Below are positions 24,639 through 41,064 of a stretch of 64,000 nt of DNA, piece after piece. Position numbers and translations under genes: made by a program. Location: contig OZ253442.1 in assembly GCA_965261085.1 (NCBI GenBank), positions 1 through 64,000 on the forward strand, read 5' to 3'. The notes beneath the pieces were generated by a model. It saw nothing but the letters and a program-made list of their open reading frames with translations. It was not told where the DNA came from and made no database searches. The stretch is from a bacterium. Lineage in GTDB: Bacteria; UBA8248. Within the stretch, counting starts at the first letter, position 1. Each line of letters begins with the position of its first letter.

Positions 24639-25823
24639 CTAGTGGTACCGCACGGTGGTAATCTTCCCGCCCTTCACCAGTATCTCGCGGTAGTTGCCCG
24701 CGCTCTCACCAGCCCCGATCAGTTCGACCGCCGAGGCGCCCACGTAATCGACGTCGCCGCCCTTGGCAATAATCTTGAGCGCCTTGGCCAGTTCTCCGGG
24801 ATAAATTTTCTCGCCCGGCGCATTGGCGACCATCATCACCTTGTCCTTGAGTTTCATGCTCTTGCTGGAGCCGGCCGCCTGCATGGCCAACAGGATCAGG
24901 GCCGCAGCGTCATAGGACTCGGCGACGAACGGGTTGCCCCCCTTGAAGCCGGCCTTCTTGGCCAGCGCGCCGAGCTTCGCCGCGCCCGGGCTGTCCGTGC
25001 CGGGAACGGTGCCGTAGGAACCATCGAGCGCCTTGCCGATCGCCTTCGGCAGGCTTTCGCCGATCATCCCGTCGGGCAGCACGAAGGTTTTGAACGCGCC
25101 GGTGTCGACCGCCGCCCGAATAACGCCCTTGCCGCCCTGGTCCACGTAACCGGCGACAATCAGAACATCGCCGCCTGCGGCTGCGAGCGCGCCGACTTCC
25201 GCCGTGTAATCCGCCTTGCCGTCTTCGTGCGCTGCGGAAATCGTAATCTTGCCGCCGGCCTTCTCGAAGTTGGTCTTGATGCTATGGGCCAGCCCCTTGC
25301 CGTAATCGTTGTTGGTGTAGGTCAGGGCCGCCGACTTGACGCCTCTTTCTTTCAAAATCGCGCCCAGGACCTGCCCTTGCCGAGCGTCGGAGGGAGCGGT
25401 GCGGAAAAACAGGCCATTGTCCTTGAGAGTAGAAAGCGCCGGCGAGGTCGCCGAGGGGGAGATCATCACGACCCCGTTGGGCATGGCCACGTTTTGCAGC
25501 ATGGCGATGGTGACGCCGGAACAATCGCCGCCGACGATGGCGTTCACCTTATCGGACGTGACCAGACGCTCGGTCGCCGCCCTGGCGGCCGCAGAATCCG
25601 TACAAGTGCTATCGCCGCGCACCGAAACCACTTTGCTGCCGCCCAAAAACGCGCCGCTGTCGCTGACTTCCTTCATCGCCAACTCAGCGGCTTTGGCCAT
25701 AGGCGGGGTGAGGGATTCAATGGGCCCCGTATAGCCGAAAATGACGCCCAATTTCACGGTTTCCGCACTGGCCGGCGCGCTTGCAAGCAAAACCAACGCC
25801 ATCGCAACGAATAGTTTCTTCAT
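24639..25823 (-). CDS. HAAT ABC substrate-binding protein
   Basis: Signal peptide (MKKLFVAM...ASA); ISPSATSP, FFRTAPSD and NNDYGKG motifs. Confidence 0.9.
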   Translation of the reverse strand: MKKLFVAMALVLLASAPASAETVKLGVIFGYTGPIESLTPPMAKAAELAMKEVSDSGAFLGGSKVVSVRGDSTCTDSAAARAATERLVTSDKVNAIVGGDCSGVTIAMLQNVAMPNGVVMISPSATSPALSTLKDNGLFFRTAPSDARQGQVLGAILKERGVKSAALTYTNNDYGKGLAHSIKTNFEKAGGKITISAAHEDGKADYTAEVGALAAAGGDVLIVAGYVDQGGKGVIRAAVDTGAFKTFVLPDGMIGESLPKAIGKALDGSYGTVPGTDSPGAAKLGALAKKAGFKGGNPFVAESYDAAALILLAMQAAGSSKSMKLKDKVMMVANAPGEKIYPGELAKALKIIAKGGDVDYVGASAVELIGAGESAGNYREILVKGGKITTVRYH

Positions 25824-26198
25824 CACTTTATCTCCCATAGATGATGGTCAAAAATGGAATCGAGTGTCAGGAACCTCGTGGATGAAGTAAATTATACACG
25901 AACCCAGATGCGGATGATCGAAAAAAATATTGCATACAAACGATTCCATACGCCCGGCGCATCGGGTAGGAACTGTCGCCGAACCCACCCTGAACGCGAA
26001 GACTTAAATACCTCGTAGGCTCATCATACGGACCATTTTCATCATCTTGCAAACATGACGCAGCCGGGCCGGGAGGCTTTTGATGACTATGGGACAGGAG
26101 ATATCAAACGTCTTGGGACGCGTGTTTCATCTCCTGTTCGCCAGGACATGGGCGTCGGGCACGTGGATCCTCACCTATGGCGGACGTGGCTCTTGATT

Positions 26199-26470
26199 GT
26201 TATCCCGGAACGCGTCCATCCGGGAGCCAGCGACTTTGGTTCTGGATTCCGGCATGCGCCGGAATGACGGCAATCTCATCGTATTTAGGCAACCTCGAAG
26301 AAACGTGGGCGGACACATACGAACTTCCCTTTCTCAGGGAAGCTCGACACCCCTACGAGGGCTCTCTCCAATCACGGCGATTCCCGCAGGAGCCTTCGTA
26401 AGGGCCGCATACATGCGTCCCGTATTTCACGGAACCAGGAGGGCCGCATATATGCGTGGGGCGGTCCCGA
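26199..26470. repeat. Mixed REP-like palindromes
   Basis: GTTATCCCGG...CCGGAATGAC hairpin element (26199-26268); GGGCCGCATA(C/T)ATGCG copies at about 26402 and 26441. Confidence 0.55.
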
Positions 26471-26735
26471 GGAGGAACCGCCACCTACATGATGGCCGGC
26501 GAACAATCTTTCCTCACCCGCGTTTAACCCACGCACTTCCCCGCAATTCCCGTCATCGCGCCTTCTCCGGGGTGTGTCAGAATCCGCCGCCAGGAGAGGA
26601 GGTTTATTCATGGAATCAGGCGATGGGGCGAGAGTGAAGGACGGCGAACCCTCCTTCCTCAGTCGGGTTCGACCTCACTCGGGTTTGCTCATGAGGAGGA
26701 GGGGAGGCGCGCTGGTGGACTTAAACATGACGGCG

Positions 26736-26930
26736 GAAATGAAAATAATCCAATTTTCGGAAAATATCGATAAATTTCCCGCAAAATTCGATAAATTCCT
26801 GAAACCCGATGGCCTTTCAAGATATTGAAATAAGAAGAGTTATACATAAATATTAGCGCATTACACTCCAATATGGAGCCATGAAAAATTTCTTGAGTCC
26901 CCCGCATTTGCCCGCATTTGCGTACGCGAA
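26736..26930. repeat. Dispersed ~200-bp AT-rich element, copy B
   Basis: Homologous to 231-430 and 5-27; ends with CCCGCATTTG x2. Confidence 0.75.
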
Positions 26931-26940
26931 GGAGAAACCC

Positions 26941-27744
26941 CTATTTTTTCCTGGGCGCAGCCAGCGCCAAAGCGGAAGGGGCCCTGCGGAGGCTCAACAT
27001 ATAGACCGTCAGCGCCTCGAGGTCCGGCGGTGATAAATGGGCGTAGGCGGGCATGGCGGATCCGGAAGAAACCTTTTGCGGGAACTTGAAATGTTCGACG
27101 TGCCACTTCGGGTCTTTTCGGCGTTCCCCCGCAAACGTCAGGTCGGGCCCGACGACTCCGCCGACTCCTCTGATTTTATGGCATCCGATACATCCGTTCG
27201 TCAGATAGAGAAGCTTTCCCTTTTGAACGAGGGGAGCCCCTTTCAACACACCTGCGTGACACGGACCACAACTCGCTTGAATTAACGGGCCCCGGAGGAG
27301 GGGCTCTCCCCAGAACGGGACTTCTCCGTGGGCATCCTGAACGGTCGTTGCTCTGCCCTGGCCCTGGTGGCACACGGTGCAGCCGAATTGCTCAAAGGGA
27401 TGCAGCGGCATTGAGGGATGCCTGGCGAAGGGCTGGGCGGCGCCTTGAAACGCCGGGTGCTCGACCCCCCGGTGGCACATGACACACCTGTCTACGCGCT
27501 CACCACCGGCCACGATGATCTGCTCGAACTGGTCTCCACTCCCCAAAACGGTTTTGCGCTCCTCTTCGGTTGCGGCTCTTGCGACGAGCATTTCACGGTA
27601 CGTCCGCTGATAGCCCCTCCATTCGCGATCATAATCCTTCCAGACGGACAGCAGAAAAAAGAAGGCCGCGCACACGCTCAGCACGGCAAAGGCGACCACC
27701 CACCCAAACGACACATAGGAAGCGTTCTGTTTTGAATTCGCCAT
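26941..27744 (-). CDS. Membrane-anchored tetraheme cytochrome c (cytochrome c subunit of a Rieske/cyt b complex)
   Basis: N-terminal TM helix; CVMCH, CTVCH, CGPCH and CIGCH; C-terminal GPDL...MP class I domain. Confidence 0.88.
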   Translation of the reverse strand: MANSKQNASYVSFGWVVAFAVLSVCAAFFFLLSVWKDYDREWRGYQRTYREMLVARAATEEERKTVLGSGDQFEQIIVAGGERVDRCVMCHRGVEHPAFQGAAQPFARHPSMPLHPFEQFGCTVCHQGQGRATTVQDAHGEVPFWGEPLLRGPLIQASCGPCHAGVLKGAPLVQKGKLLYLTNGCIGCHKIRGVGGVVGPDLTFAGERRKDPKWHVEHFKFPQKVSSGSAMPAYAHLSPPDLEALTVYMLSLRRAPSALALAAPRKK

Positions 27745-27756
27745 TCGTTATCGGCC

Positions 27757-29253
27757 TCAGTGCAGTCCCGTGGCCTGCCACGGCCATATCCAGGCCCAGT
27801 TCGCTCCACGAAAATAAAGCCCGATCACCGTGTAAATCACGTAAGCCGCCAGAAAATAGGAATACAAGGCCAAGGCCCCCATCCGGCTCGACCCCGTCCG
27901 CCGCCAGGTGTAAAGCGACCCGGTGGCGAACAGAGCGATCAGGATGGTCCCCGGATTCAAGAGGTCGACCCAGATTTGGGAAGCGCCCGGAACCAGTTTC
28001 CGGACGGCATAGTGCTCGTTCAGATAGGTCAGAATGAGGACGACCGGAATGTTCGCCAGGATCGACCAAAGCGTAATCCGCCGACCCTGGCCAGAGGTAA
28101 ACCAGTTTCCCTGGCCTGCGGGGTTGCGGTCTATGTAGGGAATGCTCATGAGGCCGATAATCGCAACGGCGGGAACGATTACGCCTCCCGCCAAAGCGGA
28201 ATAACTCACGATTTCCTGAAGCCCAAGGAAATACCAGGGAGCTTTGGCGGGGTTGGGTGGATGGTCCGGGTTGGCCAACTCCTCGAGAGGAGCATCAAAA
28301 AAATAGGCGACGACGGAGAGAACCGCCACGACTCCCACGAAGACGACCAGCATTCTGAAAACCGTATGGGGCCAGCTCATGACCTCTTCTTCCGGGGCCT
28401 GGGCACCCACCATGGGCGTTTTCCCTTCAGCCAATTCCACGAGCATGTACGTCTTGTGCGGCGAAAAAGCCGCCGACTTGCCCTCAACGGCCCCCAGGGG
28501 GTTAGCGGGCGGACGAGAGAGGCCCCCGTCTTTGTGAATCCGCCAGAAATGGACGCCCATGAGTATGAGCATGATGCCCGGCAGGACCACGACATGCATG
28601 ACGTAAAACCGGATCAACGCATTCTGCCCTACCGTGTCGCCTCCGAGCATCAGCGTGCGGATGTACTCTCCAATCAGGGGCGGATAACCGGCGATGCTCG
28701 ACCCGACGGTGATGGCCCAATAGGCGAGTTGATCCCAGGGAAGCAGATAGCCCGTGAAGCTCATCATCAGGGTCGCCCCCCAGAGGAGCACCCCGATGAC
28801 CCAGTTGAACTCACGCGGCGCTTTGTAGCTGCCCGTATAGAACACCCGGCACATGTGCAAGAAGACGATGGCGACCATCGCGTGCGCAGACCAGCGATGG
28901 AGGTTTCGCAAGACGACGCCATAGGAGACGACGAATTGCAGGTCTTTCATGTCGCTATAGGCGCGTTCGGTCGAAGGGACGTAGAAGAACATGAGCAAAG
29001 AGCCGGTGCCCACCAGAATGACGAAGAGGAAAAAGGAGATGATGCCGAGTCCCCAGGTGTAGGTGGGTTTCAGGCTGTTGACGTGCGTTCGCGCTGGAAG
29101 GACGTGAAGGAAGAAATTCGAGAACATGACCGCCGAGCGGTCCAGATCGTTGTCCGGATAACCGCGGCGGAAGATCGAGCGGACTACGCGGTTGTCCCTA
29201 ATCCAGGATGCGGCTTTTCTCTGTCCTGATTTCGGTGGGGATTCAATAGCCAC
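27757..29253 (-). CDS. Cytochrome b (fused b6 + subunit IV type) of a Rieske/cyt b complex
   Basis: HRWSAH...[18 protein letters not shown] and H-x14-H motifs; APWY in place of PEWY. Confidence 0.92.
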
Positions 29254-29262
29254 TATGTCAGC

Positions 29263-29763
29263 TCAGAGTCTGAAATGCTCGGAAGGACCGACGACTTTGC
29301 GCGTATCGACCACGACGCGGCCATCCGGCGATTTCTTTACGAGGAAAAAGTCGAGTCCCCGAGGCGCAGGTCCCCCGAGCACCTGTCCCCGGCCGTCGAA
29401 AGTGCTACCGTGGCACGGACACCGGGCCCTTAGAATATCCGGAGACGCCCCGGGCGCCCCGACAAAGGGGCCAATCACGCAACGAAGATGAGGACAGATG
29501 GCCGTGCAGGCCCGGAATCCATCCTTTTCGCGAAAAAGAACCACCTTCTTCTGTGCAAAAAACGTGATGGACCCCACGGGGTATTTCTCCAGGGAATCGA
29601 GTTTCAAAACCGCCTCGCCTTCATAAACGACGTTGGGGAACAAGAACCGGACGTTGGCGAGAACCGGACCCAGCAGGGAAATCAGGAAGGAAACCCAGCC
29701 CAAACCCAAAAGCATCCGGCGCCGGGGGGTCGACTCGTCCAGGCTCGCAGTCATGTCATCCAT
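29263..29763 (-). CDS. Rieske [2Fe-2S] subunit (QcrA/PetC-like)
   Basis: RRR + TM helix; CPHLRC, CPCHGS and GPAPRGL motifs; start coupled to the upstream stop. Confidence 0.9.
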   Translation of the reverse strand: MDDMTASLDESTPRRRMLLGLGWVSFLISLLGPVLANVRFLFPNVVYEGEAVLKLDSLEKYPVGSITFFAQKKVVLFREKDGFRACTAICPHLRCVIGPFVGAPGASPDILRARCPCHGSTFDGRGQVLGGPAPRGLDFFLVKKSPDGRVVVDTRKVVGPSEHFRL

Positions 29764-31807
29764 GCTCCATCCACTCTTCCTGGAAAGAAAAATTCTCGAT
29801 GGTGACGGCGCCCGTGGGACAACGCTGGGCGCAGAGCGAACAACGGATGCACGCATCCGGATCCATGATCATGGCCGCGCCTATCCCCGCCTCTCCGGCG
29901 CCTGCGGCGGACGTTCCATAACGGGCACCGATTAAAGCCGCCAAGTCCTCTCCTCCCTGAAGGGCTTCCAGGGGAACCATTCGCAGGCAGCGCGACGGGC
30001 AGACGTCCACACAACCGCCGCACAGTATACACTTGGCGCCATCGAAGATCGGGTTTGCGCTGCAACGCAGACACCGGAGTCCCTGATCCACCGCTTCCCC
30101 GGGCGAATAACCCAGTTCCACCTCGGCGACACCGATTCTCCGCTCAATGGGCAGCGCGTCGGGGTTTCGCCGGGAGGCTGTCTGGTAGCCGGGATTGATG
30201 ACGGGAAGGGAAAATCCATCTCCCGGCTCGTGAAGCAGCGCTTGCCGCAAGGGCTCGATGGGGGCCCACTGGAAATCGGTCTGGACGTTGACTTGACCGC
30301 CTGAAAGATAAGTGTGAATGGAGCGAGCGGCCCGGTGGCCGTTTTCCACTCCTTCGATGAATATGCGGGGGCCCATGGCGACGTCTCCTCCCGCGTACAC
30401 GCCCGGAGCGGTTGTGGCCAGGGTTTCGGGATCTACGCGGATTGTCCCTCGCGGCGTCGTTTCGATGCCGTCCCCCTCACCGATCCAGGACAGGTCGGAC
30501 GACTGGCCGACGGCTACGATCACGGAATCGCAAGGAATCACGCGCTTCGTGCCGGGTCCGAATTCCGGGCTGAAGCGACCCTCTTCGTCAAAGACACGGG
30601 CGCATTTGTGGACTTCCAGCCCGACCACCCGGCCCCCGCTTTCCACAATTCGAATGGGTCCCACCCTGGGTTCGATCTCGATCCCCTCATCGAGCGCTTC
30701 CTCGATCTCGAAATCCGCCGCCGGCATCTCCTCGCGGGATTCCAGGCAGATGACGTGGACGCTCCTCGCTCCTACGCGCATCGCCTGCCGGGCCACGTCC
30801 ATCGCTTCCCGCATGAGGACGGAGTCTTCCGTCTGGTCGGCCTCGCTTGCGGGAGCGTCCGCCTGGCCGGAGACCCGGGCCGCGACCCGGGCGGCGTCCA
30901 TGGCCACGTTTCCCCCGCCGATCACGACGACTCGCTCACCCAATTCGACGCGGAAATCCAGATTCACGTTCAGCAGAAATTCGACGGCCCGGAAAACGCC
31001 GTCTGCGTCCCGCCCTTCCACGGGAAGGCTGCGGCTCACGTGGGCGCCGATGGCGATGAACACCGCTTCAAAGCCTTCCGCGCGAAGAGCGGAAAGGTCG
31101 AAGTCTCGCCCGATGGCTTTGTTCAGCCGAAGTTCTACGCCCAGGCTGAGTATGGCCTGGATCTCGGCCTGTACGAGATCCCGCGGAAGCCGATATTCAG
31201 GAACCCCGAGCATCAGCATACCTCCGGGGACTCCCTGTTTTTCGAAAACACTTACGTCATAGCCGAGCAGGGCGAGATCGTGGGCGCAAGTCAGCCCCGC
31301 CACACCCGATCCGACGACGGCCACCTTTTTCCCTGCCGTCTTTCCCTGTCGGGGCTTGCGACGGGCCGCCTCCAGCACCGAGAAATCGTTGATGGTGCGT
31401 GTGGAGGGCTGATAACGGAGGTCTCGCATACTCCTGAGACTCCGGTGCGAGAAGGAGGATTCTCCCTTCCCGGACGATAAATCGGCCTCTACTCCGTAGC
31501 GCTCCGTGACGAATCGTTTGAGCGCCCGGATAGCCACCGGCGCATCGATGTTTCCCCGACGGCAGGCCGCTTCGCATGGCGCCGCACAGACGCGTCCGCA
31601 AACCGACGCAAAGGGGTTGGGCCCCCTGGCGATGATATATGCGCGCTCGAAGTCCCCTTCGGAGATGGCGGTCACGTAACCCCGCGCGTCCGTATGGACG
31701 GGACAAGCCGCCTGACAAGAAATCGTTTCCCGCCAATGGTCGTGGCCGGGCAACTCGACCCGAAAGGAGCGCTCGGGGAGGGGAGCATCCCGATTCCCTG
31801 AACCCAT
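29756..31807 (-). CDS. FAD/NAD(P)-dependent oxidoreductase (GltD/NfnB-like) with a C-terminal 2x[4Fe-4S] domain
   Basis: CQAACP, CGRVC..PCE..C, GSGVAG, GGGNVA, CLRC, CILCGGCVDVCP and CIRCSLCAQRCP motifs. Confidence 0.9.
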   Translation of the reverse strand: MGSGNRDAPLPERSFRVELPGHDHWRETISCQAACPVHTDARGYVTAISEGDFERAYIIARGPNPFASVCGRVCAAPCEAACRRGNIDAPVAIRALKRFVTERYGVEADLSSGKGESSFSHRSLRSMRDLRYQPSTRTINDFSVLEAARRKPRQGKTAGKKVAVVGSGVAGLTCAHDLALLGYDVSVFEKQGVPGGMLMLGVPEYRLPRDLVQAEIQAILSLGVELRLNKAIGRDFDLSALRAEGFEAVFIAIGAHVSRSLPVEGRDADGVFRAVEFLLNVNLDFRVELGERVVVIGGGNVAMDAARVAARVSGQADAPASEADQTEDSVLMREAMDVARQAMRVGARSVHVICLESREEMPAADFEIEEALDEGIEIEPRVGPIRIVESGGRVVGLEVHKCARVFDEEGRFSPEFGPGTKRVIPCDSVIVAVGQSSDLSWIGEGDGIETTPRGTIRVDPETLATTAPGVYAGGDVAMGPRIFIEGVENGHRAARSIHTYLSGGQVNVQTDFQWAPIEPLRQALLHEPGDGFSLPVINPGYQTASRRNPDALPIERRIGVAEVELGYSPGEAVDQGLRCLRCSANPIFDGAKCILCGGCVDVCPSRCLRMVPLEALQGGEDLAALIGARYGTSAAGAGEAGIGAAMIMDPDACIRCSLCAQRCPTGAVTIENFSFQEEWMEHG

Positions 31808-31817
31808 TCCCGTGATC

Positions 31818-32198
31818 CTATTTCGCCAGGGTGCGGATGAATGCGACCACGTTTTGGACATCGGGGTCCGAAAGAACCCCGCCCCAGGGGGGCATCAACG
31901 GCGATTTGCCTACCGCCACGCCGCCGAGCTTGGTGATCTTGGCTATATACTCGTCCGATATGGTCTTCATATATTTGGTATCCGTGTGATTTCTCGGCTT
32001 CGGGTTGAGCGCACCGGCTGCGGGACCGTCGCCCTTGCCCGTTGGCCCGTGGCAGGAGGCGCAAAGCTGCTGGTATTTGACCTTGCCGGCCGCAGCATCG
32101 CCTTTTTGCTGAGCGGCCCCGTCATCGGAGGCCAGGAGAAAGATCGCCATTCCGAGTACGCAGCCGGCGCAGATGAAAAACCTTCTCGATCGAGACAT
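31818..32198 (-). CDS. Periplasmic monoheme cytochrome c
   Basis: Signal peptide; CASCH, GDGP and MPPW motifs. Confidence 0.92.
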   Translation of the reverse strand: MSRSRRFFICAGCVLGMAIFLLASDDGAAQQKGDAAAGKVKYQQLCASCHGPTGKGDGPAAGALNPKPRNHTDTKYMKTISDEYIAKITKLGGVAVGKSPLMPPWGGVLSDPDVQNVVAFIRTLAK

Positions 32199-32246
32199 TC
32201 GTTTTCAACCTCCCTCACGATTCTACGGGGTAAACCACCATCTCCA

Positions 32247-34913
32247 TTAAAGCGTCCGGGGAACGAAACTAAGACTCGTCAGCGAATGCTTGTGCGGAGA
32301 TTCTCCAATCTTCTTCAATCGTCCCTTACCCAGCTTATACCGATAGCGGTTGGTCAAGGGATCCGGCACCCTGTGAACCACCGAATTGGCCGGGTTTTCG
32401 GGAAAGCCGAAATAGGCGAAGGTGACGCCTGCGCGAACCGCATCCGTGACAATGGCCACTGCGGTGAAGCTCCCCTTGCTTTTCTTGATTCGTCCGGCCT
32501 TCATCAGCTCGGTGAACGTCTGCTCCTTGTCGTCGACGCCGATGTATCCTCCCGTCTGCACGAGCAGGTCGTCGTTCTCGATGGCCACGAGGTCTCCGGA
32601 CTCGATGCCTCGGGCGCTGGCGTCTTGCGGGTGAATTTCCAGGAACTGCTGCGGCCAGCGCTGCATGATGTAGGGACGCCGCTTGTCGTCGTAGCCGGAT
32701 TGCCAAAGCTCGTTTATCCGGCCGTTCGTCACCCACAGTTCGTCTCCTTGCGGAGTGACCCGATCGTAGAAATCCTTAAAATCTTCCCAGTAGCTTTTCA
32801 GCAAAACCGCCTTGCCGCTCTGGGTCCCGAAGGAGGTGAGCCATTTCCTGTGCATCGTGGGTCCTTCCGGGGTTCCCAATTCAAGGGTCTCGTCGTGTAG
32901 CCGCTTCGTCCCGACAAGTTCTCCCTTGACCATGCGGATGGGGGTTTGAATGCCGGCGGTTCCGTATTCGCGGAGCAGTTCGTGCCCTCGTTTCCCATCG
33001 CGCTTGGCCTTCACCACGAGCGGATGGTAATTGAGGACCCCTTTGCGTCCGAAGCGGGCCGCCTCCTCGAATATCTGGTTGCTGTTCTTCCAATCGAAAC
33101 CCTTGAATCCCATCTTCCTGGCGAAGGCCGCGATGATCCACCAGTCGGGCCTGGCCTCTCCGGGGGGGTCGGCGAACTTGCTGTAGAGCCTGAGACGACG
33201 CTCGCCGTTGCACCGGGTGAAGTCTTCCTCGCCCCAGGTGGCTGCCGGAAGCACCAGATCCGCATACTCCGTTCCGATCGGAGTAACAGGATAAATGTCC
33301 TGGTTGGCCACGACCATGCCGCCGGTGTCCACCCGTCTCTTTAAGGCGTTCACCGCCGTCTCGACGTCAAAGCTCTCGATCTGATGGGGATTGTTACGAG
33401 TCAATCGCTGGAAGACGCCCATCAATTCCTGGGATGCCGCCATGGCCTGACACCAGGTGGTTCCGATGACCCATGCGAAACGGACGTGGCCATCCACGAC
33501 CCACCGGTCCAGATCGATTTCCTTCTTGCGGCGTCCCGGCGCCTTCTCCGGAGACAGGTTCCTCGGATAACCGGCTGCGCCCATCCAGCCTCTTTGATGC
33601 CCCCCTCCGCGCGAGATCACACGGCCCGGTCGCGACCCGGCCCCACAAACCAGCCCGAGGGCCGCGAAGGAAGCCGTGTTCCCGAAGCTGTTGCACCAGT
33701 AATTTCCCTTCTCGAGCATGAACGAGGTTTTTTTGCGCGTCCCGTCGGGTTTGGGCTTGGCCAGGATTTCAGCGGTCTTCCGAATCGATGCCGCGGACAC
33801 ACCCGTAATCTTGGCGACTTGGTCCAACTCGGCGTAGGGATAGCTTAGAACCCACTTTTTGTAGCCCTCGAAGTCGGTCCCGTACTTACCCCAGGTCGTG
33901 ACCCACTGCCACGGCGTGTTGCGGGTTCCGCGTCCCATGCCGGCGTTGATCTCCCACTTGTTCGCCAACTTTCGCGCAATCCACTCCTTATCCTCCCAGC
34001 CGTTTTCCAGGATCAGGCGGATGATGGCCAGATGAAGTACCGTATCCGTTCCCGGAATGACGGGAAGGAAGAGACCTCCCTGTTTCTCACCGTAGACAAC
34101 GCCCGTGGTCTTCCGGGGAAGGGCGAAGATCAGTTTCTTGGCAGGCGTTTTCCCTCCCATGATCCAGGAGGTGAACAACACCGATTTGGTTTCCCACGGG
34201 TCGACGCCGGAGAAGAAGATCACTTCGGCCTCTCCCCAGTCGTCATAGGAGGCGCTGAAAGGATTGATACCGGAAAAATCGATCCCGGGCGTGTCCGGGC
34301 CGGGACCCGGCTTGTCATGCGGGGCGTAGGCCGGCGTTCCGATGGCGCGGAAAGCGAGCTTGGAGATGGCGTAGGTATTTTCGAAATACTGATAGGAATA
34401 CGTCTTCATGGCCCAGGCGTGCTCGCCGTACTTCTTGAGGACATGTTTCGAGATTCCCGCCATGACGCCCAGGGCCGTATCCCACGAAACCTCCTGGAGG
34501 GTTCCACCAACCCGCATCATCGGCTGACGCAGGCGATCCTGGGAGGGTTCGTTGGGATTAAAAAGCTTCTTGGCCAGGACGCCGCCCCGGATGGAGTGGT
34601 TCCCCCCGACGTTCACGACCTTCGAATCCTTATCGGGCATGACGATAACGTGGTGGGGGCGACCGTTGGCCATAATAATGTTGTGCATGTTCGGGCTGAT
34701 CCAGCCGCCGCTCATCATGCCGGTGGGGAAATCGACGCCCAGGGCATTCTCCCCGCCCTTGGGCCCGCCCTCGCGCCCGACCGGCCACCTGTACACCTTG
34801 TACCCGCAGCCCACGATGCAATAGTCACACACCGTGGTGAAAACCTCCGCGTCCGGCGGCGGGAGGGGGACACTGTCTTCCGCAAGGTAGTAGTTCGTTA
34901 CCTTTCTTGCCAT
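32247..34913 (-). CDS. idrA: AioA/IdrA-family molybdopterin oxidoreductase large subunit (iodate reductase IdrA-like / arsenite oxidase-like)
   Basis: C29-x2-C32-x3-C36-x70-S107 [3Fe-4S] motif; EKG, RGGGHQ, NGERR and NGR motifs; adjacent to a Rieske gene and two CcP-like genes. Confidence 0.85.
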   Translation of the reverse strand: MARKVTNYYLAEDSVPLPPPDAEVFTTVCDYCIVGCGYKVYRWPVGREGGPKGGENALGVDFPTGMMSGGWISPNMHNIIMANGRPHHVIVMPDKDSKVVNVGGNHSIRGGVLAKKLFNPNEPSQDRLRQPMMRVGGTLQEVSWDTALGVMAGISKHVLKKYGEHAWAMKTYSYQYFENTYAISKLAFRAIGTPAYAPHDKPGPGPDTPGIDFSGINPFSASYDDWGEAEVIFFSGVDPWETKSVLFTSWIMGGKTPAKKLIFALPRKTTGVVYGEKQGGLFLPVIPGTDTVLHLAIIRLILENGWEDKEWIARKLANKWEINAGMGRGTRNTPWQWVTTWGKYGTDFEGYKKWVLSYPYAELDQVAKITGVSAASIRKTAEILAKPKPDGTRKKTSFMLEKGNYWCNSFGNTASFAALGLVCGAGSRPGRVISRGGGHQRGWMGAAGYPRNLSPEKAPGRRKKEIDLDRWVVDGHVRFAWVIGTTWCQAMAASQELMGVFQRLTRNNPHQIESFDVETAVNALKRRVDTGGMVVANQDIYPVTPIGTEYADLVLPAATWGEEDFTRCNGERRLRLYSKFADPPGEARPDWWIIAAFARKMGFKGFDWKNSNQIFEEAARFGRKGVLNYHPLVVKAKRDGKRGHELLREYGTAGIQTPIRMVKGELVGTKRLHDETLELGTPEGPTMHRKWLTSFGTQSGKAVLLKSYWEDFKDFYDRVTPQGDELWVTNGRINELWQSGYDDKRRPYIMQRWPQQFLEIHPQDASARGIESGDLVAIENDDLLVQTGGYIGVDDKEQTFTELMKAGRIKKSKGSFTAVAIVTDAVRAGVTFAYFGFPENPANSVVHRVPDPLTNRYRYKLGKGRLKKIGESPHKHSLTSLSFVPRTL

Positions 34914-34925
34914 GGTGCGTCCTCC

Positions 34926-35468
34926 TCAGCGCTGCAGCGGCGCAAGGTTCGAGTGATAACCGTATATGAGGCCCATCATCCCAATCGCGTAGATGTCGTC
35001 TCCACGGGTCTCCAGAACGACCTGGGGGAGGCTTTCCGTGGCTTGCCCCGCCGCGACCATGCCGTGCTTCATCAGGTCAAAGGACGTCAGATGAAAAGGG
35101 CACGGGCCTATGGCCTTGTACTTCCCGTTGTAGGTGCCCTGGAGGGGACCCCCCATGTGAGTGCAAAGGGTGCTGAACGCCACGACGTCTCTCTTAGAAC
35201 CGACGCCGCCGCCGGCCTCGACGCCCAACTTGATCAGCATGCATCCCGAGAAGACGTCCTTCCACGGATATTGGAAGTATTGCGGCGCATCGACCTTCAG
35301 ACTGCTGAGTTTTCCGATTTTCTTGCGGGGATAACCAGCCTTTTGCAGGGCCGCCCCGGCCATACCGGGAATGCCCTGGACCAGCACCACGCTCACGGCG
35401 GCTCCGCTGGTCAGGAGAAAGGCTCGCCGGGACATGCAAGGCCGGTTTTCCTTGGCTTCCTGAGTCAT
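34926..35468 (-). CDS. idrB: AioB/IdrB-family Rieske small subunit with Tat signal
   Basis: ATG 35468 after AAGGAGG; SRRAFL twin-Arg; CTHMG, CPFH and GQAT..LPQ..GLIYG motifs. Confidence 0.85.
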   Translation of the reverse strand: MTQEAKENRPCMSRRAFLLTSGAAVSVVLVQGIPGMAGAALQKAGYPRKKIGKLSSLKVDAPQYFQYPWKDVFSGCMLIKLGVEAGGGVGSKRDVVAFSTLCTHMGGPLQGTYNGKYKAIGPCPFHLTSFDLMKHGMVAAGQATESLPQVVLETRGDDIYAIGMMGLIYGYHSNLAPLQR

Positions 35469-35478
35469 GGATTCCTCC

Positions 35479-36618
35479 TTACGGCATGGCCGCGTACGGC
35501 GGCAGTTCAGGGGGCTGGACGAGCAAAGGCTTATCGCTCGAGAGTGACTCCAGGAAGGCCAGCAGGTCCTCCTTCTCCTCGTCTGAAAGCCCCAATTTTT
35601 TGAGAAGGGGACTCTTGTTCGAGTCCTGCCCGCCTCCTTCGTTATAAAAATCAATGACCTCTTCGAGCTCGAAAAAAGCGCCATTATGCATGAAAGGGGC
35701 CGTGTATTTCAGTTCCCGGAGGCTGGGGGTGCGGAACTTCCCCCGGTCGGCTTTCCTCTTGGTGGTGTAGTAGAGCCCCAAATCCCGATCCGCCTTTCGG
35801 TACACGGATTCAGGAACCCCCCGAATCACGTGCTGAAAACGAAGCGTTATCTGCCGCAGGGGGTCTTCCTTGAACGCGGGATTTTGGGGAACGCCGATGT
35901 TGTGATAGTCATCGTCCGACAACAGGGACCCGTTATGGCACTGGACACACTGGGCCTTTCCGCGAAAAAGAGCCAAACCCCGTTTCGCGCTTTCGGAAAG
36001 CGCTTTGCGGTCTCCTTTCATGTAGCGGTCGAACGGCACGTCCTTCGCACTGGAAACCAGTGTGCGCTCGAAAGCCGAAATGGCGCGCCAGGCGTCGTCG
36101 ATGGTCGGCCAGGCGGCTCCGAATACCTCACGAAAGCGTTTGACGTACTCCGGAACCTGACGCAGACGCTCCTCCATCATCATGGTGTCGCCGTTTCCGG
36201 CCACGTTGCCGGTAGCGGCGCTCTTGGCCTGGGCTTCCAGACTCGGAACCTCGCCGGCCCAGAACAATTTTGCGTAATAGGCTGAATTCAGGATTGTCTG
36301 GGAGTTCCTCCAGTGCTGCGTGCCTGGATAGCCCCGGCTCAGATCCCCCCCGTCTCCCCAGCCGCTCTCCGGGCTGTGACAAGAGGCGCACGACGTGCTG
36401 GCATCCCCCGACAACCGGGCGTCGAAAAAGAGCAGCTTGCCCAACTCCACCTTGGCCGGAGACATGGGATTGTCCGCCGGAACCGGAACCGGCGGAAGGG
36501 GCCCCAGGGGAGGAAATTTCCCCTCCTGGGCCGAAACCGACCCTCCCATCAGAAGGGCGGCGATGAAGCAAACGGCCATTGTGGAACCCAAGAACCAATT
36601 TTTCATTCGCCCTTTCAT
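35479..36618 (-). CDS. Di-heme cytochrome c peroxidase/MauG family protein (IdrP1-like)
   Basis: LGKLLFFD.RLS, CASCH, CVQCH and FRTPSLR..APFMHNG motifs. Confidence 0.9.
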   Translation of the reverse strand: MKGRMKNWFLGSTMAVCFIAALLMGGSVSAQEGKFPPLGPLPPVPVPADNPMSPAKVELGKLLFFDARLSGDASTSCASCHSPESGWGDGGDLSRGYPGTQHWRNSQTILNSAYYAKLFWAGEVPSLEAQAKSAATGNVAGNGDTMMMEERLRQVPEYVKRFREVFGAAWPTIDDAWRAISAFERTLVSSAKDVPFDRYMKGDRKALSESAKRGLALFRGKAQCVQCHNGSLLSDDDYHNIGVPQNPAFKEDPLRQITLRFQHVIRGVPESVYRKADRDLGLYYTTKRKADRGKFRTPSLRELKYTAPFMHNGAFFELEEVIDFYNEGGGQDSNKSPLLKKLGLSDEEKEDLLAFLESLSSDKPLLVQPPELPPYAAMP

Positions 36619-36628
36619 GGCCGTCTCC

Positions 36629-37735
36629 TCAATTATCGCCTAGTTTGCGAATTGCATAATCGGGAAGTTTCGGCTCCTTCACGGAAACCGGAGAGCCGGA
36701 GAGACTTTTCAGGAATTCCACCAGGGCCTTGCGCTCATCCGCCTTGAGACCCAGGGGTTTCAGCCGCGTACTCTTGTTGGGACCGCGGCCGCCGCCCTTG
36801 TCGTAAAAGGCGACGACGTCCTCCAGCGCGGCGAATGCGCCGTTGTGCATGTAGGGAGCCGTTCGAGCGACTTCCCGCAAAGTGGGCGTTCGGAACTTGC
36901 CCCGGTCGCTCTCTTCTTTCGTCACGACGTAGAGGCCCGGATCGGCCCTGAGGTTCATGAAATTCGGAACACCGATAACCTTGTTGAACCGGCGGAAAGT
37001 GATGTGGCGCAGCGGATTCTTGAATATCTGCTCGTTTTCGGGAACGCCGAGCGCATGAAATTCGCCGTCGCTCAAAAGAGATCCGCCATGGCACTGGACG
37101 CAACCGGCCTTCCCCTGGAACAAGGCGAGTCCCTTTCGAGCCTGGGCGGAAAGGGCTTTTTTGTCGCCCTTGAGATACTTGTCAAAAGGAACGTTCCGGG
37201 AAGTGATGGTATGGAGGAACGCCGTAATGGCCTTAAGCGCCCCACCGAAGGAAGGTTCCCCTCCATACGCCTCTTTGAATTTCTTGACATAGGAGGGAAT
37301 CTGCTTGAGCCGCTCGGGAAACAACCGGCCATCGACCAGCATGAAGTGGGCCTCGGTGAGGTGATCGCGAACGAGCGTGGGCAGGTCGGCCCCGCTCAGG
37401 CGACCGTCCCAAAAGACGCGTTTGTTGTAGGCGGCGTTCAGGAGAGTTTGCGCGTTCCGAAAATACTTGCTCCCGGGATAGCCCGTGGACAGGCTCTGTC
37501 CATCACCCCATCCCTTGGCGGGTTGATGGCAGGTGGCGCAACTGATCCCCCCGTCCCCCGATAACCGGGGATCAAAGAACAGATACCGGCCCAAATCGGT
37601 CTGTGCGGGCTTCTGGGCCTTGGGCGGCGGAAGAGGCGAGAGAGAAGCCCCCCAGCCGGCGGCAGGAAGAAAAACCCAGAAGCTCAACAGGATTCCGCCG
37701 ATCACCCGACACCCGACAGCGCGAACAAGATCCAT
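36629..37735 (-). CDS. Di-heme cytochrome c peroxidase/MauG family protein (IdrP2-like)
   Basis: LFFDPRLS, CATCH, FWDGR, CVQCH and APYMHNG motifs. Confidence 0.9.
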   Translation of the reverse strand: MDLVRAVGCRVIGGILLSFWVFLPAAGWGASLSPLPPPKAQKPAQTDLGRYLFFDPRLSGDGGISCATCHQPAKGWGDGQSLSTGYPGSKYFRNAQTLLNAAYNKRVFWDGRLSGADLPTLVRDHLTEAHFMLVDGRLFPERLKQIPSYVKKFKEAYGGEPSFGGALKAITAFLHTITSRNVPFDKYLKGDKKALSAQARKGLALFQGKAGCVQCHGGSLLSDGEFHALGVPENEQIFKNPLRHITFRRFNKVIGVPNFMNLRADPGLYVVTKEESDRGKFRTPTLREVARTAPYMHNGAFAALEDVVAFYDKGGGRGPNKSTRLKPLGLKADERKALVEFLKSLSGSPVSVKEPKLPDYAIRKLGDN

Positions 37736-37808
37736 TCTTCCCTACCCCCCACGGCTAGTATTCTATACCCTATAAGATATCCGTCTCAACCGTGACGAAA
37801 ATTCGGCC

Positions 37809-38552
37809 TTATTTCGAAGAGAACGTGAAGGCGGCAGCCTCCTTTCCACCGGCGGAGATGGTGATGTTTTTCTTTTTCATCCCCAGAGCCGGATGCCACG
37901 CCCTCAGGGAGTATTTCCCCGGGGGTATATCCTTGATCTGAAAGGTCCCATCCCCGCTCATGATCGCGTAATAGGGGTTCCTGGCCACGAAGAGAAACCC
38001 CTTCATCCAGTTGTGCACGTCGCACTCGATCCGGACGATCGGGCTCCGCCGAACCTTGGCCTTACGGACGACCTTTTTCCGAAATTTGGGTTGAGAGATG
38101 TTCCACATGGACCGTTTGGAGCGTCCTATGATCTCGTAGGTGTGAATGTTGTGATGGGCGGCGTCGCTGTTCAGGATGGTGACCTTGCCCCCTTCGGCGA
38201 CTATTTGCAGGTAGGGGACATAGGCGCACTTCTTCTGGTCCACCACGACGCTCTGGATTTTCTTGGGAAAGGCCTTGCCCTGCTTGACCTTGTGGAGATA
38301 GACGATCACGCCCCGGAGAGAGCCGTCCTTCGCGTCCACCTCCTGGCGGGTGACCTGGCCCTTGCCGCAGGCGTCATGGTCCTTGGTAATGATGTATTTG
38401 ACGGGCGCGGGAGGAGCACCCTTGAAGCTCACTCGGCCGGTGATGGTCCCGCCGCTGGTGGTAGATACGACTTTATACTTTGCTGAGGAAGAGTCAGGAG
38501 AAAAAAGAAAAAGCAGGGGAAAAACGAAAAGTAAGAAGGATTTACCCATCAT
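37809..38552 (-). CDS. Secreted carboxypeptidase-regulatory-like/cupredoxin-like domain protein
   Basis: Signal peptide; GTITGRV, DQKKC, HNIH, CDVHNWM, NPYYA and PGKY..AWHP motifs. Confidence 0.75.
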   Translation of the reverse strand: MMGKSFLLFVFPLLFLFSPDSSSAKYKVVSTTSGGTITGRVSFKGAPPAPVKYIITKDHDACGKGQVTRQEVDAKDGSLRGVIVYLHKVKQGKAFPKKIQSVVVDQKKCAYVPYLQIVAEGGKVTILNSDAAHHNIHTYEIIGRSKRSMWNISQPKFRKKVVRKAKVRRSPIVRIECDVHNWMKGFLFVARNPYYAIMSGDGTFQIKDIPPGKYSLRAWHPALGMKKKNITISAGGKEAAAFTFSSK

Positions 38553-39040
38553 TGAAAGAACTCCCTCGCAATGTCTTCTGTTGGCTTACGGCAACACGAT
38601 TATCGACCATCAACTATCCCGAGTCGTTTTCCGTCCTCCTCATCAGCGAAGTGTCGTCAAGGAACGGGAATGTCCTTTCGATGCGGGTCGCGCTCAAGTC
38701 GGCGACAAGTGGAATCGTCCCCACCACGGACGCAACAGAAACCCAACGTTCATCGTAGCGTGTCGCATGCTCTTTATGAGCTTGTTCATAATTTCAATAT
38801 ACGAGCAACTCTTGAATGTTGCAACAAGATTGAAATTCGACCTTTCTCGTGAGGCGGGCCGTTGCGCTCTGAGACCTACTTGCTTAGAGAGAACAAGAGA
38901 AGGGAGACTCAGCATCGAAACGCAGTGTGACCTACGTGAAAAACCAAAGACCACATCTAATAATGAAGAAAACTTTCCCCAGCAAATGACGAATGCACGA
39001 ACAGATGAGAAGAGAATCGAGTGTCTGTTTTAGTGGCTGT

Positions 39041-39080
39041 TACAGGGACATACAGGGATATACGAAGACGCACAGGGAGC
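39041..39080. repeat. Four degenerate tandem 10-mers (TACAGGGACA)
   Basis: TACAGGGACA TACAGGGATA TACGAAGACG CACAGGGAGC, 60 bp from the tRNA-Arg 3' end. Confidence 0.55.
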
Positions 39081-39139
39081 AAATTCAAAATATCCAGATC
39101 GCTGCTATCTGGTTGATTTTATTTTCCCTGATTTTCAGA

Positions 39140-39216
39140 TGGCACGCCCGGTAGGACTCGAACCTACAACCTTCGGATCCGAAGTCCGACGCTCTATCCA
39201 ATTGAGCTACGGGCGC
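39140..39216 (-). tRNA. tRNA-Arg(TCG)
   Basis: GCGCCCG...TCGGA-CT-TCG-GA-TCCGA...GCCA. Confidence 0.96.
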
Positions 39217-39273
39217 GTGATATCCGTTGGTCTTGTTCGGAAGACAGGTTCCGCTCAAGAATGTGTAAACGTA

Positions 39274-39350
39274 TGGGGTGAGTGAGGGGACTTGAACCCC
39301 CGACCTCCGGGGCCACAACCCGGCGCTCTAACCACTGAGCTACACCCACC
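39274..39350 (-). tRNA. tRNA-His(GTG), G-1 encoded
   Basis: CCGGG-TT-GTG-GC-CCCGG anticodon arm; C73 discriminator; CCA. Confidence 0.96.
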
Positions 39351-39423
39351 ATGCCTCCACCCGCCTCGCCTGCGCGTGTGGCCACGCATCCGGCGAGAGG
39401 AGCAACGCAATTACCCCAAAAAA

Positions 39424-39500
<77 letters not shown>

Positions 39501-39863
39501 CCACCTCGGCGACTTTCCCGTGGCAACCCACTCGCAGGCACCGATTTTCCGCTCAAAAGGCAAGAGAAAATATCACAAATCGAGATCGTCAACAACGCCT
39601 AGATCAGGAAGACCCATCCTGCGCGAGAAGTCACGATGGAAAAAGGATGGCTTGGCGCTCAGGCCAGGACAGGAAGATGACCTGGAGCGATTACGCGGAC
39701 ACGCGAACCCGGTAACGCACGCATGGGGCCTTTCGGCCCCGCCCAGCGAGCGCCCCTCTTCTCCCCAAATTTTTGTATTGAGCGTTTTAGTATAAGGAAA
39801 CCGCCGGAAATGTCCAGTGCCGCCGGGCAATGGCCACTATCCCAGGCGGGCGCAGCAAAAAAT

Positions 39864-40757
39864 CTACTCTCCCTCGAAGGGTTTTCTGCGCACCCTGCCC
39901 TCGCCCACCAGGGCCGCCTTCATGAGGAGAACCAGGGTGTTGGTTCTGGGGATGAGGTGGATGAAGCGATCGAGTTTCTGATCGATCACGTCGATTTCGC
40001 TCTCAGAAAGTCCGAGCGCCGCCACACGCTCCCTGCTCAAATCGACGGCGAAGGGAAACTCCTGTGCGGCGGCCGCCGCAGCTCCTTGCGCCTGGGTGAC
40101 GGTAATCCGGTACCCCGCCTTCGCCATCTCTTCTTTGAGAAACGGCCACACCCGCTCCAGAAAGGCGGGATGATGCCCCAGAGCGCGCCAAACGCTGCCC
40201 AGCCCCCCGGTCGTCTCGCGAATCTCTTCATACAGAGCACCCAAAGAAGCATCGACGGCGGCCGGGTCCACCAGACTTTCTCCACGCATCGAGGAGGGCG
40301 GACCCTTTGGCAACTCATCGGTGTCGGATTCTGCGCCGGGGCGGACGCCACCTATCTTCATGCCGTTGAGCGCGCCCTTCAAGGCGGCGGCGAGAATGAG
40401 GTTTTTGGGATTCGCGTCATTGTATATGTCCAGGACGCCGTCGACCGCGCCGATATCCTCAGGCCTGTAGTCGAAATTATCTTCTAATTCTTCGCCCACG
40501 TCGGGCACGTCGGGCGGCATGGGCGGGGCCATCCGCATCCTGAGGTTATCCGCGCAGCGCTCGAAATAAGCGATCGATGCATTGGGCCTGAGCGCATCCC
40601 AGGCCGCGGAAAAGTATTGTTCATGAACGGCCAGGGTGCGATAGATGAGGTTCACCTGCGTGCTGCGGAGCACCTGACGCATGTCTTCATAGATCGCCGC
40701 AACCTTCCCGGTGGCGCGATCTTCGGTGATTTCATCCAGGGCGATGGGTTTCATCAT
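39864..40757 (-). CDS. DehI family (group I haloacid dehalogenase-like) protein
   Basis: Internal duplication of E..A.G....IYE.IR...V...R.LA..P.F...W..L.P; GGGG RBS region before MMKP. Confidence 0.72.
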   Translation of the reverse strand: MMKPIALDEITEDRATGKVAAIYEDMRQVLRSTQVNLIYRTLAVHEQYFSAAWDALRPNASIAYFERCADNLRMRMAPPMPPDVPDVGEELEDNFDYRPEDIGAVDGVLDIYNDANPKNLILAAALKGALNGMKIGGVRPGAESDTDELPKGPPSSMRGESLVDPAAVDASLGALYEEIRETTGGLGSVWRALGHHPAFLERVWPFLKEEMAKAGYRITVTQAQGAAAAAAQEFPFAVDLSRERVAALGLSESEIDVIDQKLDRFIHLIPRTNTLVLLMKAALVGEGRVRRKPFEGE

Positions 40758-40898
40758 TCCCCCTTCGAGGCCCGAAAGGCAAAAGCGAAAAAGCGGCCCG
40801 GCGAGGCGCCGCGCGAATCGCCCAGAGTATATGGGTGGTTGTCGGATGGAAACAAGCCAGTTTCGTTCCAGAAGCCCATCTGTGTGCAATAAAAACCC

Positions 40899-40962
40899 TT
40901 GACATAAAAGTTGAATGGCAATATATTTGATTCAGTCAAATATTGATGCCCTCATATTTGAC
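40899..40962 (+). promoter_or_regulatory. Sigma70 promoter with overlapping palindromic operator (probably MarR)
   Basis: TTGACA (40899), 17-bp spacer, TATATT (40922); ATATTTGA-N5-TCAAATAT overlaps the -10; extra half site ATATTTGAC at 40954. Confidence 0.8.
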
Positions 40963-41064
40963 GAGGATTAAACAAGAACCATCAGACGAAATGCCCGGGA
41001 AACATCGAGGCTGCGCCTCCAAAACCCGGGCCACGAAATCCGGGAAAGACGGCACAGGGGAGTC

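Follow-up and report, generated by a model that had tools for sequence, protein, structure and literature searches.

An accessory island that joins idr-type iodate reductase genes to a Rieske/cytochrome b module of the NAD(P)-flavoprotein type

The idrABP1P2 genes are known from Pseudomonas sp. SCT, Denitromonas iodatirespirans IR-12, Azonexus hydrophilus NCP973 and Ca. Methylomirabilis iodofontis. In the literature, idr loci are recognised by the P2-P1-B-A order of these genes (PMC8692401, PMC10989891), and the genes around them are described in the published text as poorly conserved. In the published model, electrons pass from quinol to a bc complex, then to cytochrome c and on to IdrAB (PMC8692401). 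A second described system, rare and treated up to now chiefly in anammox bacteria, comprises the Kuenenia stuttgartiensis clusters Kuste4569-4574 and Kustd1480-1485, in which a GltD-like NAD(P) oxidoreductase gene lies beside genes for a Rieske protein, b6-type cytochrome b/subunit IV and multiheme cytochrome c. Such complexes have been proposed to bifurcate quinol electrons to NAD(P)+ and a high-potential acceptor, and Rieske potentials of +303 and +335 mV were measured in the Kuenenia complexes, according to the text of PMC12954380. Here we analysed a stretch of 64,000 nucleotides (the window; positions 1 to 64,000 of contig OZ253442.1, assembly GCA_965261085.1) from an uncultured bacterium of soil or groundwater (GTDB lineage UBA8248). 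Ten genes at window positions 26941-38552 join idrP2-P1-B-A to a module of the Kuenenia type and are inherited as one block. We regard it as on balance probable that this block represents an iodate-reduction island expanded by an electron supply of its own and forms a self-contained quinol-to-iodate branch.

The ten genes are co-oriented on the minus strand, with intergenic gaps from gene 1 to gene 10 of 73, 10, 10, 12, 48, 10, -8, 9 and 12 bp. The original prediction, made from the letters of the window, had listed ten co-oriented genes with gaps below 75 bp; all ten were present in the order given, with gaps of -8 to 73 bp. Start codons were refined by comparison with relatives, and a GGAGG-like sequence precedes most of the genes. 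Domain calls were made with Pfam and NCBIfam (cut-offs of 95.65 bits for TIGR02694 and 359 bits for TIGR02693). The genes are as follows.

37809-38552, minus strand: gene 1, exported two-domain protein of 247 residues, predicted type-1 copper cupredoxin plus a CarboxypepD_reg-like beta-sandwich.
36629-37735, minus strand: gene 2, diheme cytochrome c peroxidase in the idrP2 position (CCP_MauG, E 9.9e-42; two CxxCH motifs).
35479-36618, minus strand: gene 3, diheme cytochrome c peroxidase in the idrP1 position (CCP_MauG, E 7.1e-45; two CxxCH motifs).
34926-35468, minus strand: gene 4, IdrB, Rieske small subunit exported by twin-arginine translocation (Tat) (TIGR02694, 121 bits; SRRAFL; CTH...CPFH).
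32247-34913, minus strand: gene 5, IdrA, catalytic subunit of 888 residues with molybdenum-bis-pyranopterin guanine dinucleotide (Mo-bisPGD) and [3Fe-4S].
31818-32198, minus strand: gene 6, exported monoheme cytochrome c of 126 residues (one CxxCH motif).
29756-31807, minus strand: gene 7, cytoplasmic NAD(P)-binding flavin adenine dinucleotide/iron-sulfur (FeS) flavoprotein, GltD/NfnB-like, with a C-terminal 2x[4Fe-4S] domain.
29263-29763, minus strand: gene 8, membrane-anchored Rieske protein of the bc module (RRR motif and membrane helix).
27757-29253, minus strand: gene 9, cytochrome b of 498 residues, a b6-type N-terminal half fused to a subunit-IV-like C-terminal half.
26941-27744, minus strand: gene 10, membrane-anchored tetraheme cytochrome c (four CxxCH motifs; N-terminal hydrophobic helix; Pfam matches).

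The gene 5 product matched Rieske_3 (3Fe-4S), Molybdopterin and Molydop_binding, and TIGR02693 at 462 bits. The flavoprotein matched the N-terminal FeS domain Fer4_20, Pyr_redox_2 and the 2x[4Fe-4S] domain, and the gene 9 product is a single protein with Cytochrome_B and Cytochrom_B_C domains. The arrangement is not due to chance: of the relatives' loci compared for synteny, 7 of 80 from species genomes and 1 of 33 from metagenomes are colinear with it.

The gene 5 product was 61% identical (residues 12-888) to IdrA of D. iodatirespirans IR-12 (L058) and 58.4% identical to IdrA of A. hydrophilus NCP973, and its closest solved relatives were arsenite oxidases, at an E-value of 6e-86 only. A tree of 89 rows was computed with IQ-TREE (quick; LG+G4) and rooted on four AioAs and one Cytobacillus AioA-like row; L022, which has an X or a stop in its frame, was left out. 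The 84 IdrA-like rows, including IR-12 and NCP973, formed one clade with a Shimodaira-Hasegawa-like approximate likelihood ratio test (SH-aLRT) value of 100, and gene 5 fell inside this clade and outside canonical AioA. The window lineage (11 rows, SH-aLRT 100) was sister to Methylomirabilota/Rokubacteria rows (97), and this pair was sister (85) to the Pseudomonadota clade that holds IR-12 and NCP973. Seventeen alignment columns were invariant in the four AioAs and differed from them in at least 97% of the 84 IdrA-like rows; gene 5 carries the IdrA-type residue at all 17. The P2-P1-B-A order was found in 73 of the 80 related loci, and in 62 of 66 when those with at least 3.8 kb of upstream sequence were considered. 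By motif inspection, the Tat motif SRRAFL of IdrB and the hydrophobic N-termini of both peroxidases predict export. Clade, identity, residues and gene order thus make the idr half a new member of a known family. These results indicated that, by sequence, the molybdoenzyme is IdrA-type and not canonical AioA, as the original prediction had gathered from AioBA-like genes next to two cytochrome c peroxidase genes.

The likeness to AioBA of Alcaligenes faecalis and NT-26 lies in the subunit architecture, in NCBIfam models scoring above cut-off and in a cupredoxin or cytochrome c as redox partner (proposed here); in NT-25, as here, a cytochrome c gene follows the large-subunit gene. The differences from AioBA are an identity of 28-31% to plasmid-borne AioAs, a separate clade (SH-aLRT 100), 17 fixed residue differences, the two peroxidase genes and the lack of an ars/aioXSR context. 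No ars or aioXSR gene was found in the island by a Pfam/NCBIfam scan with inspection of the flanking genes, in which real aio loci were compared. The model TIGR02693 fails to tell the IdrA and AioA clades apart.

The IdrA branch might instead oxidise a substrate such as arsenite, antimonite or iodide and send electrons through the bc module to NAD(P)+ by reverse flow, a direction that the original prediction had allowed and that we consider very unlikely. Room for it is left by the literature, in whose available text we found no assayed member of the window sub-clade of 11 rows or of its Methylomirabilota sister group, by the NCBIfam arsenite-oxidase model, which scores above its cut-off (462 versus 359), and by an ArsP_1-family permease gene 2 kb outside the island. 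Set against these points, gene 5 is nested in the clade of validated iodate reducers with all of the clade-specific residues, the two-peroxidase signature is reported in the text of PMC8692401 to set idr apart from aio neighbourhoods, the permease gene belongs to a conserved flank that the island-free genome G015 keeps, and the island has none of the ars and aioXSR genes. For the oxidation of iodide, arsenite or antimonite itself, nothing was found in support.

IdrA-like genes were also observed in other settings. The A. hydrophilus NCP973 cluster lies on a plasmid (L156, 318775 bp) beside TnsA-like and IS21 genes, with a sensor kinase and a sigma-54 regulator upstream and a cytochrome c gene and moaA downstream. 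In Vibrio sp. THAF190c, the replicon pTHAF190c_a (L157) holds an unannotated IdrA-like frame that is 48% identical to the window protein and forms a long basal branch (0.84) of the IdrA clade. The contig L013, binned as 'Methanobacteriota archaeon', encodes an IdrA of 68-69% identity that is preceded by a peroxidase gene and idrB. In the tree this IdrA is placed within Planctomycetota rows, which makes the binning, or a possible gene transfer, worth checking.

The bc module of the island is a second, specialised complex that stands beside an ordinary one. The genome, a single contig of 4.27 Mb, has two cytochrome b genes, that of the island and one in an ordinary Rieske/b6/subunit-IV set at 2.30 Mb. 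The ordinary genes (G000:C1:2299573-2303898; L083 5573-9898) adjoin a DDE transposase gene. Among 65 PDB matches of the gene 8 Rieske protein, the top two were 9rk4 (E 1e-14) and 9rk3 (E 2.8e-9), ahead of the Rieske proteins of b6f complexes; these entries are Kuste4569 and Kustd1480, described in PMC12954380 as the Rieske subunits of two Kuenenia complexes with an NAD(P) oxidoreductase. The solved relatives of the flavoprotein are NfnB/GltD-type enzymes, and flavoprotein homologues of 50-62% identity came from NC10, Anaerolineae and Chloroflexota. The gene content is that of the anammox operons: a Rieske protein and a b6-type cytochrome b with subunit IV are encoded together with a GltD-like FeS flavoprotein and a multiheme cytochrome c. 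The flavoprotein-Rieske-cytochrome b order is kept in relatives and in those metagenome loci that have enough sequence.

Several features of the Kuenenia complexes are absent here. Cytochrome b and subunit IV are fused instead of separate, the multiheme protein is a tetraheme cytochrome c instead of a hexa- or octaheme one, no HAO-like octaheme gene is present, the partner is a molybdoenzyme and the host is not an anammox planctomycete. The two systems have in common that a high-potential terminal reaction is co-encoded (HAO-like there, Idr here). In type, the bc half belongs with the anammox complexes that carry an NAD(P) flavoprotein, and the likeness drawn in the original prediction is borne out by a Rieske protein closest to Kuste4569 and Kustd1480. 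The FFLH histidine of cytochrome b was considered as the extra N-terminal b-heme ligand of the Kuenenia models and set aside as not discriminating, since the ordinary cytochrome b6 of this genome has it too.

The monoheme cytochrome c of gene 6 accompanies the bc module in relatives that lack idr or carry it unlinked: proteins 71-76% identical are encoded directly upstream of the flavoprotein gene in G035, G025 and G065. Searches by tblastn with this 126-residue protein miss divergent cytochromes c, so that its absence from the locus table counts as no evidence; the cytochrome c gene after idrA in Azonexus is unscored in that table.

Gene 1 had been called an exported beta-protein. Export was upheld, and in place of a plain beta-protein we found a cupredoxin domain followed by a beta-sandwich. 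Pfam matched only the C-terminal 50 residues, to beta-sandwich models, and gave no match to cupredoxin models. The motif C-x2-H-x2-M was present in all 33 gene 1 homologues found upstream of idrP2, and H134, C177, H180 and M183 were invariant in the family, as were C62 and C109 (alignment of 23 rows). The AlphaFold2 model (predicted local distance difference test score, pLDDT, 90.3; predicted template modelling score, pTM, 0.84) had as its best PDB Foldseek matches amicyanin, plastocyanin, pseudoazurin and other cupredoxins, with target-normalised TM-scores of 0.6-0.69. Gene 1 shares with these proteins the fold and the ligand set His...Cys-x2-His-x2-Met with amicyanin-like spacing; it differs from them in the added C-terminal CarboxypepD_reg-like beta-sandwich, in the two further invariant cysteines and in the lack of a Pfam cupredoxin match. 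From sequence and model, gene 1 is a type-1 (blue-copper) cupredoxin with predicted copper binding. A cupredoxin of this type lies upstream of idrP2 in 33 of the 80 loci, Denitromonas not being among them, and members of this two-domain family also immediately precede the flavoprotein gene in 3 of the 33 metagenome loci that were scanned (L172, L184 and L193), all three without idr. The words 'cupredoxin' and 'azurin' are absent from the available text of Reyes-Umana on idr, and our literature search found no paper that pairs an iodate reductase with a cupredoxin, though supplementary tables and figures may show neighbouring genes.

Inheritance of the two halves was followed across the genus. 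An orthologue of the fused cytochrome b (at least 89% identical) was found in 14 of 22 genomes, IdrA was found in the same 14, and neither was found in the other 8, one of which (G018) has a completeness of only 79%. The cytochrome b and IdrA genes share a strand and are separated by 3 kb in 12 of the 14; in G005 a contig ends within IdrA and leaves a fragment, and in G022 IdrA is split into two pieces. In L002-L005 and L012, the same 10.9-kb colinear block (91% nucleotide identity) is located elsewhere on the chromosome, between a sugar ATP-binding cassette (ABC) transporter and DUF1330/Lhr genes, and the downstream flank at that site matches the window's genome at 1.58 Mb. Across the 80 idr loci from species genomes, the bc module lies downstream of idr in L001-L005, L012 and L007 only. 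In L007, from the Nitrospinota metagenome-assembled genome K_2_bin.39, the cytochrome b frame stops at a TAG (15940-15960), six codons before the end of the window protein. These results demonstrated that the ten genes have been gained, lost and relocated together in this lineage.

The limits of the island were given by the same-genus genome G015, in which the flanks sit 325 bp apart compared with 13.3 kb in the window. The left flank, G015:C1:86793-87615, corresponds to window 25001-25823 (89.7%) and the right, G015:C1:87941-88823, to window 39125-40000 (83.7%). The features of the site are as follows.

25824-39124, no strand: accessory island of 13.3 kb, in place of which about 325 bp stand in G015.
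39140-39216, minus strand: tRNA-Arg(tcg), the last of a tRNA-Arg(tct)/His/Arg(tcg) trio, with its 3' end abutting the island.
38553-39139, minus strand: non-coding leader/promoter region upstream of the cluster, without a Pfam-bearing open reading frame and with promoter-like sites at 38824-38796 and 39145-39116.
25839-26940, no strand: non-coding island tail, in which short repeats are interspersed at about 26238-26604.

The tRNA trio also borders the island in L001, which lies at the same site as in the window. Repeats of the att type were sought at the island ends, and the short interspersed repeats of the tail were all that turned up. These repeats (window 26238-26604) are about 34-90 nt long and occur in many copies at 88-100% identity in the same-genus genomes G015 and G007; contig depth in the bin 26000-26453 was very high in all four runs examined. 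Genes for amino-acid and sugar ABC transporters lie at the island flanks. Just outside the island, at window 39864-42653, are a DehI-family (haloacid dehalogenase-like) gene and the ArsP_1-family permease gene, both part of the flank that G015 also has.

The module was also sought elsewhere. A metagenome scan with a cytochrome b alignment gave 33 loci, in which flavoprotein, Rieske and cytochrome b genes, then a multiheme cytochrome c gene, recur wherever the sequence allows, at a cytochrome b identity of 43-66% outside L165. The stand-alone module of G025 and G035 starts with an Rrf2-family regulator and a cytochrome c like that of gene 6. In G028, of another genus of the same family, the order is flavoprotein, Rieske, cytochrome b, multiheme cytochrome c, cupredoxin, P2, P1, B and A. 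The flavoprotein tree placed the window, L002, L007 and two database proteins in one clade (SH-aLRT 100) and G025, G028, G035 and G065 in a separate clade (SH-aLRT 100); the L001 row (wrong frame, branch length 10) was disregarded. Since both the clade of the G028 flavoprotein and the reversed order differ from those of the window, Idr has become linked with modules of two lineages, and in two gene orders. In 3 of the 33 metagenome loci, a related module lies beside a NapA-like enzyme. The array in L174 (6927-20354; also L175 and L197) is led by Rrf2, flavoprotein, Rieske and cytochrome b genes and a 1009-residue multiheme cytochrome c, followed by a NapA-like Tat molybdoenzyme and then NapG-, NapG- and NapH-like genes. 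In L147 (14896-19001; G025), an NAD-linked formate dehydrogenase (FdhA with a NuoG-like N-terminus, and a NuoF-like gene) stands upstream of the Rrf2-headed module.

A number of observations weigh against reading the block as one functional system. The module was absent within 10 kb in 40 of the 47 idr loci with at least 6 kb of downstream sequence, including that of the experimentally studied Denitromonas; Idr, then, does not need it. Conversely, 32 of the 33 metagenome module loci lack idr (L165, with a cytochrome b of 89% identity, has it), in G025 and G065 (95-98% complete) the module is present and IdrA was not found, and in G035 the two halves are on different contigs. A module that is common without idr has a function of its own and is reusable rather than an intrinsic part of Idr. 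The co-occurrence in 14 of 14 genomes represents few independent events, because the genus members are close kin, and no integrase or transposase was seen at either chromosomal site of the block. A structure prediction of cytochrome b with flavoprotein residues 500-683 lent weak support to their association, at a score of 0.49 (best of three controls, 0.00), and is listed here for its weakness. Of 80 solved complexes, 58 passed the mark used, as did 2 of 110 mismatched pairs, and scores of 0.60 or less held only 7 of the 80 solved complexes and both of the passing mismatches. Contact agreement between runs, made with custom alignments as input, was at least 87%, and partner pLDDT was at least 74.

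Public sequence data bear on transcription. The stretch is wholly or partly present in twenty public runs from nine studies, and contigs partly cover both halves (at least 90% likeness) in two metatranscriptomic runs of one study and in two runs guessed to be RNA. A contig from an RNA library covers 38377-38737, in the leader region. Two contigs, 31922-32274 (without mismatch) and 31804-32260, cross the spacer between idrA and gene 6; they enter idrA by 28 and 14 nt only and come from the two runs guessed to be RNA, which counts with the points just listed. Contigs of this kind give no levels, starts or strand, and DNA carry-over is possible. A scan listed no terminator-like site in the 48-bp idrA-gene 6 spacer. 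Co-transcription of the ten genes is thus weakly indicated: the coverage of both halves and the crossed spacer agree with it, to the extent that these contigs derive from RNA.

The two halves could be neighbours without coupling, an idr cassette beside a general-purpose NAD(P)-linked Rieske/cytochrome b operon carried together by linkage only. The bc module would then serve other acceptors, and Idr would draw on any cytochrome c or cupredoxin pool. The counts of idr without module and of module without idr both fit this explanation, as do the Rrf2 regulator and cytochrome c that stand-alone modules own and the 740-bp gap that separates the module from the cupredoxin-idr genes in G028. We judge it unlikely all the same: just 48 bp lie between idrA and gene 6, with no Rrf2 gene and no listed terminator-like site in between; the halves came together on at least two occasions, with a different module lineage and gene order each time; all ten genes were kept at two chromosomal sites; co-presence and co-absence were perfect across the 22 genus genomes; and the genome has a separate, ordinary b6-type complex. 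The original prediction had described a self-contained chain from NAD(P)H and quinone to an oxyanion enzyme. Its Idr-type assignment held, the genes proved to be inherited as one block in this lineage, and the linkage of the halves is lineage-specific, given the 40 of 47 idr loci without the module.

If the block is an iodate-reduction island with its own electron supply, quinol would be oxidised at the Rieske/cytochrome b complex. The high-potential electron would pass from the Rieske protein to the tetraheme cytochrome c, from which the soluble cytochrome c and/or the cupredoxin would carry it through IdrB to IdrA, which would reduce periplasmic iodate. The two peroxidases may clear oxidant by-products, as proposed for Denitromonas. 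This chain follows the published Denitromonas model (quinol, bc1, cytochrome c551, IdrAB), with the bc step swapped for the flavoprotein-bearing complex, and we infer both the electron path and the role of the cupredoxin on that basis. The flavoprotein would join the low-potential b-heme branch to NAD(P)(H). This link could work either way, with NAD(P)H feeding in or with quinol bifurcation, powered by the high potential of iodate, reducing NAD(P)+.

In the first case, the flavoprotein would be a built-in NAD(P)H dehydrogenase whose electrons enter the b-heme/quinone side, making an NAD(P)H:iodate chain, which we hold to be possible and rather doubtful. The genome looks organotrophic and aerobic-capable (ABC transporters, one heme-copper oxidase, and no RuBisCO large subunit found in a genome of 96% completeness), so that cytoplasmic NAD(P)H should be plentiful, and the closest solved relatives of the flavoprotein, NfnB-type enzymes and GltD, are reversible. 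The sole published proposal that we found for this complex type is, however, NAD(P)+ reduction by bifurcation, which the high Rieske potentials also fit (PMC12954380, in the text available), and the sequence itself does not fix the direction. In the second case, the block would be an electron-bifurcating quinol:iodate/NAD(P)+ oxidoreductase system, which we think improbable. There, the very positive iodate couple would pull one electron via the Rieske protein, tetraheme cytochrome c and cupredoxin or cytochrome c to IdrAB, and the second quinol electron would be pushed via the b hemes and FeS clusters to NAD(P)+.

The GTDB phylum of the host comprises 51 species genomes only, and close relatives carry the NCBI name 'Nitrospinota bacterium'. 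The genome has one Chlor_dismutase-family gene and seven molybdopterin enzymes. Nitrite oxidation coupled to iodate is an idea raised for oxygen-minimum zones in the text of PMC11373643; it was considered for this host and rejected, as none of the seven enzymes has a frame of NxrA/NarG size.

Compared with the known idr islands, the locus has the same P2-P1-B-A order, a Tat-exported Rieske-type IdrB, a 3Fe-4S/Mo-bisPGD IdrA of 58-61% identity in the same clade and a patchy distribution, here beside a tRNA gene. Unlike them, it encodes a bc-type complex with its cytochromes and a cupredoxin, and unlike the bc1 complex of the idr model this complex is a flavoprotein-bearing b6-type one. The original prediction knew of no description of the combination in one operon, and our literature search likewise found no description of idr joined to such a bc module; supplements may show neighbouring genes.

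In models of iodate respiration, IdrAB is taken to receive its electrons from a housekeeping bc1 complex and a cytochrome c. At this locus the supply chain lies in the island itself, which names candidate partners in the cupredoxin family, the monoheme cytochrome c and the tetraheme cytochrome c. In the text of a 2025 paper, the role of NAD(P)-reductase-bearing Rieske/cytochrome b complexes is still called unclear, as it has been since the anammox description. This complex type is widespread outside anammox bacteria and is repeatedly paired with high-potential periplasmic reductases. With a ten-gene unit and a simple soluble substrate, the donor and bifurcation models become testable. Were bifurcation true, the island would be the first non-anammox case with an identifiable, genetically linked high-potential acceptor for an NAD(P)H-generating Rieske/cytochrome b mechanism, and the relatives of the module, whether Nap-linked or stand-alone, would be versions of one machine that serve other acceptors. 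The likely iodate reducers are also extended to a small, uncultured, phylum-level lineage that has been found in several sequencing studies.

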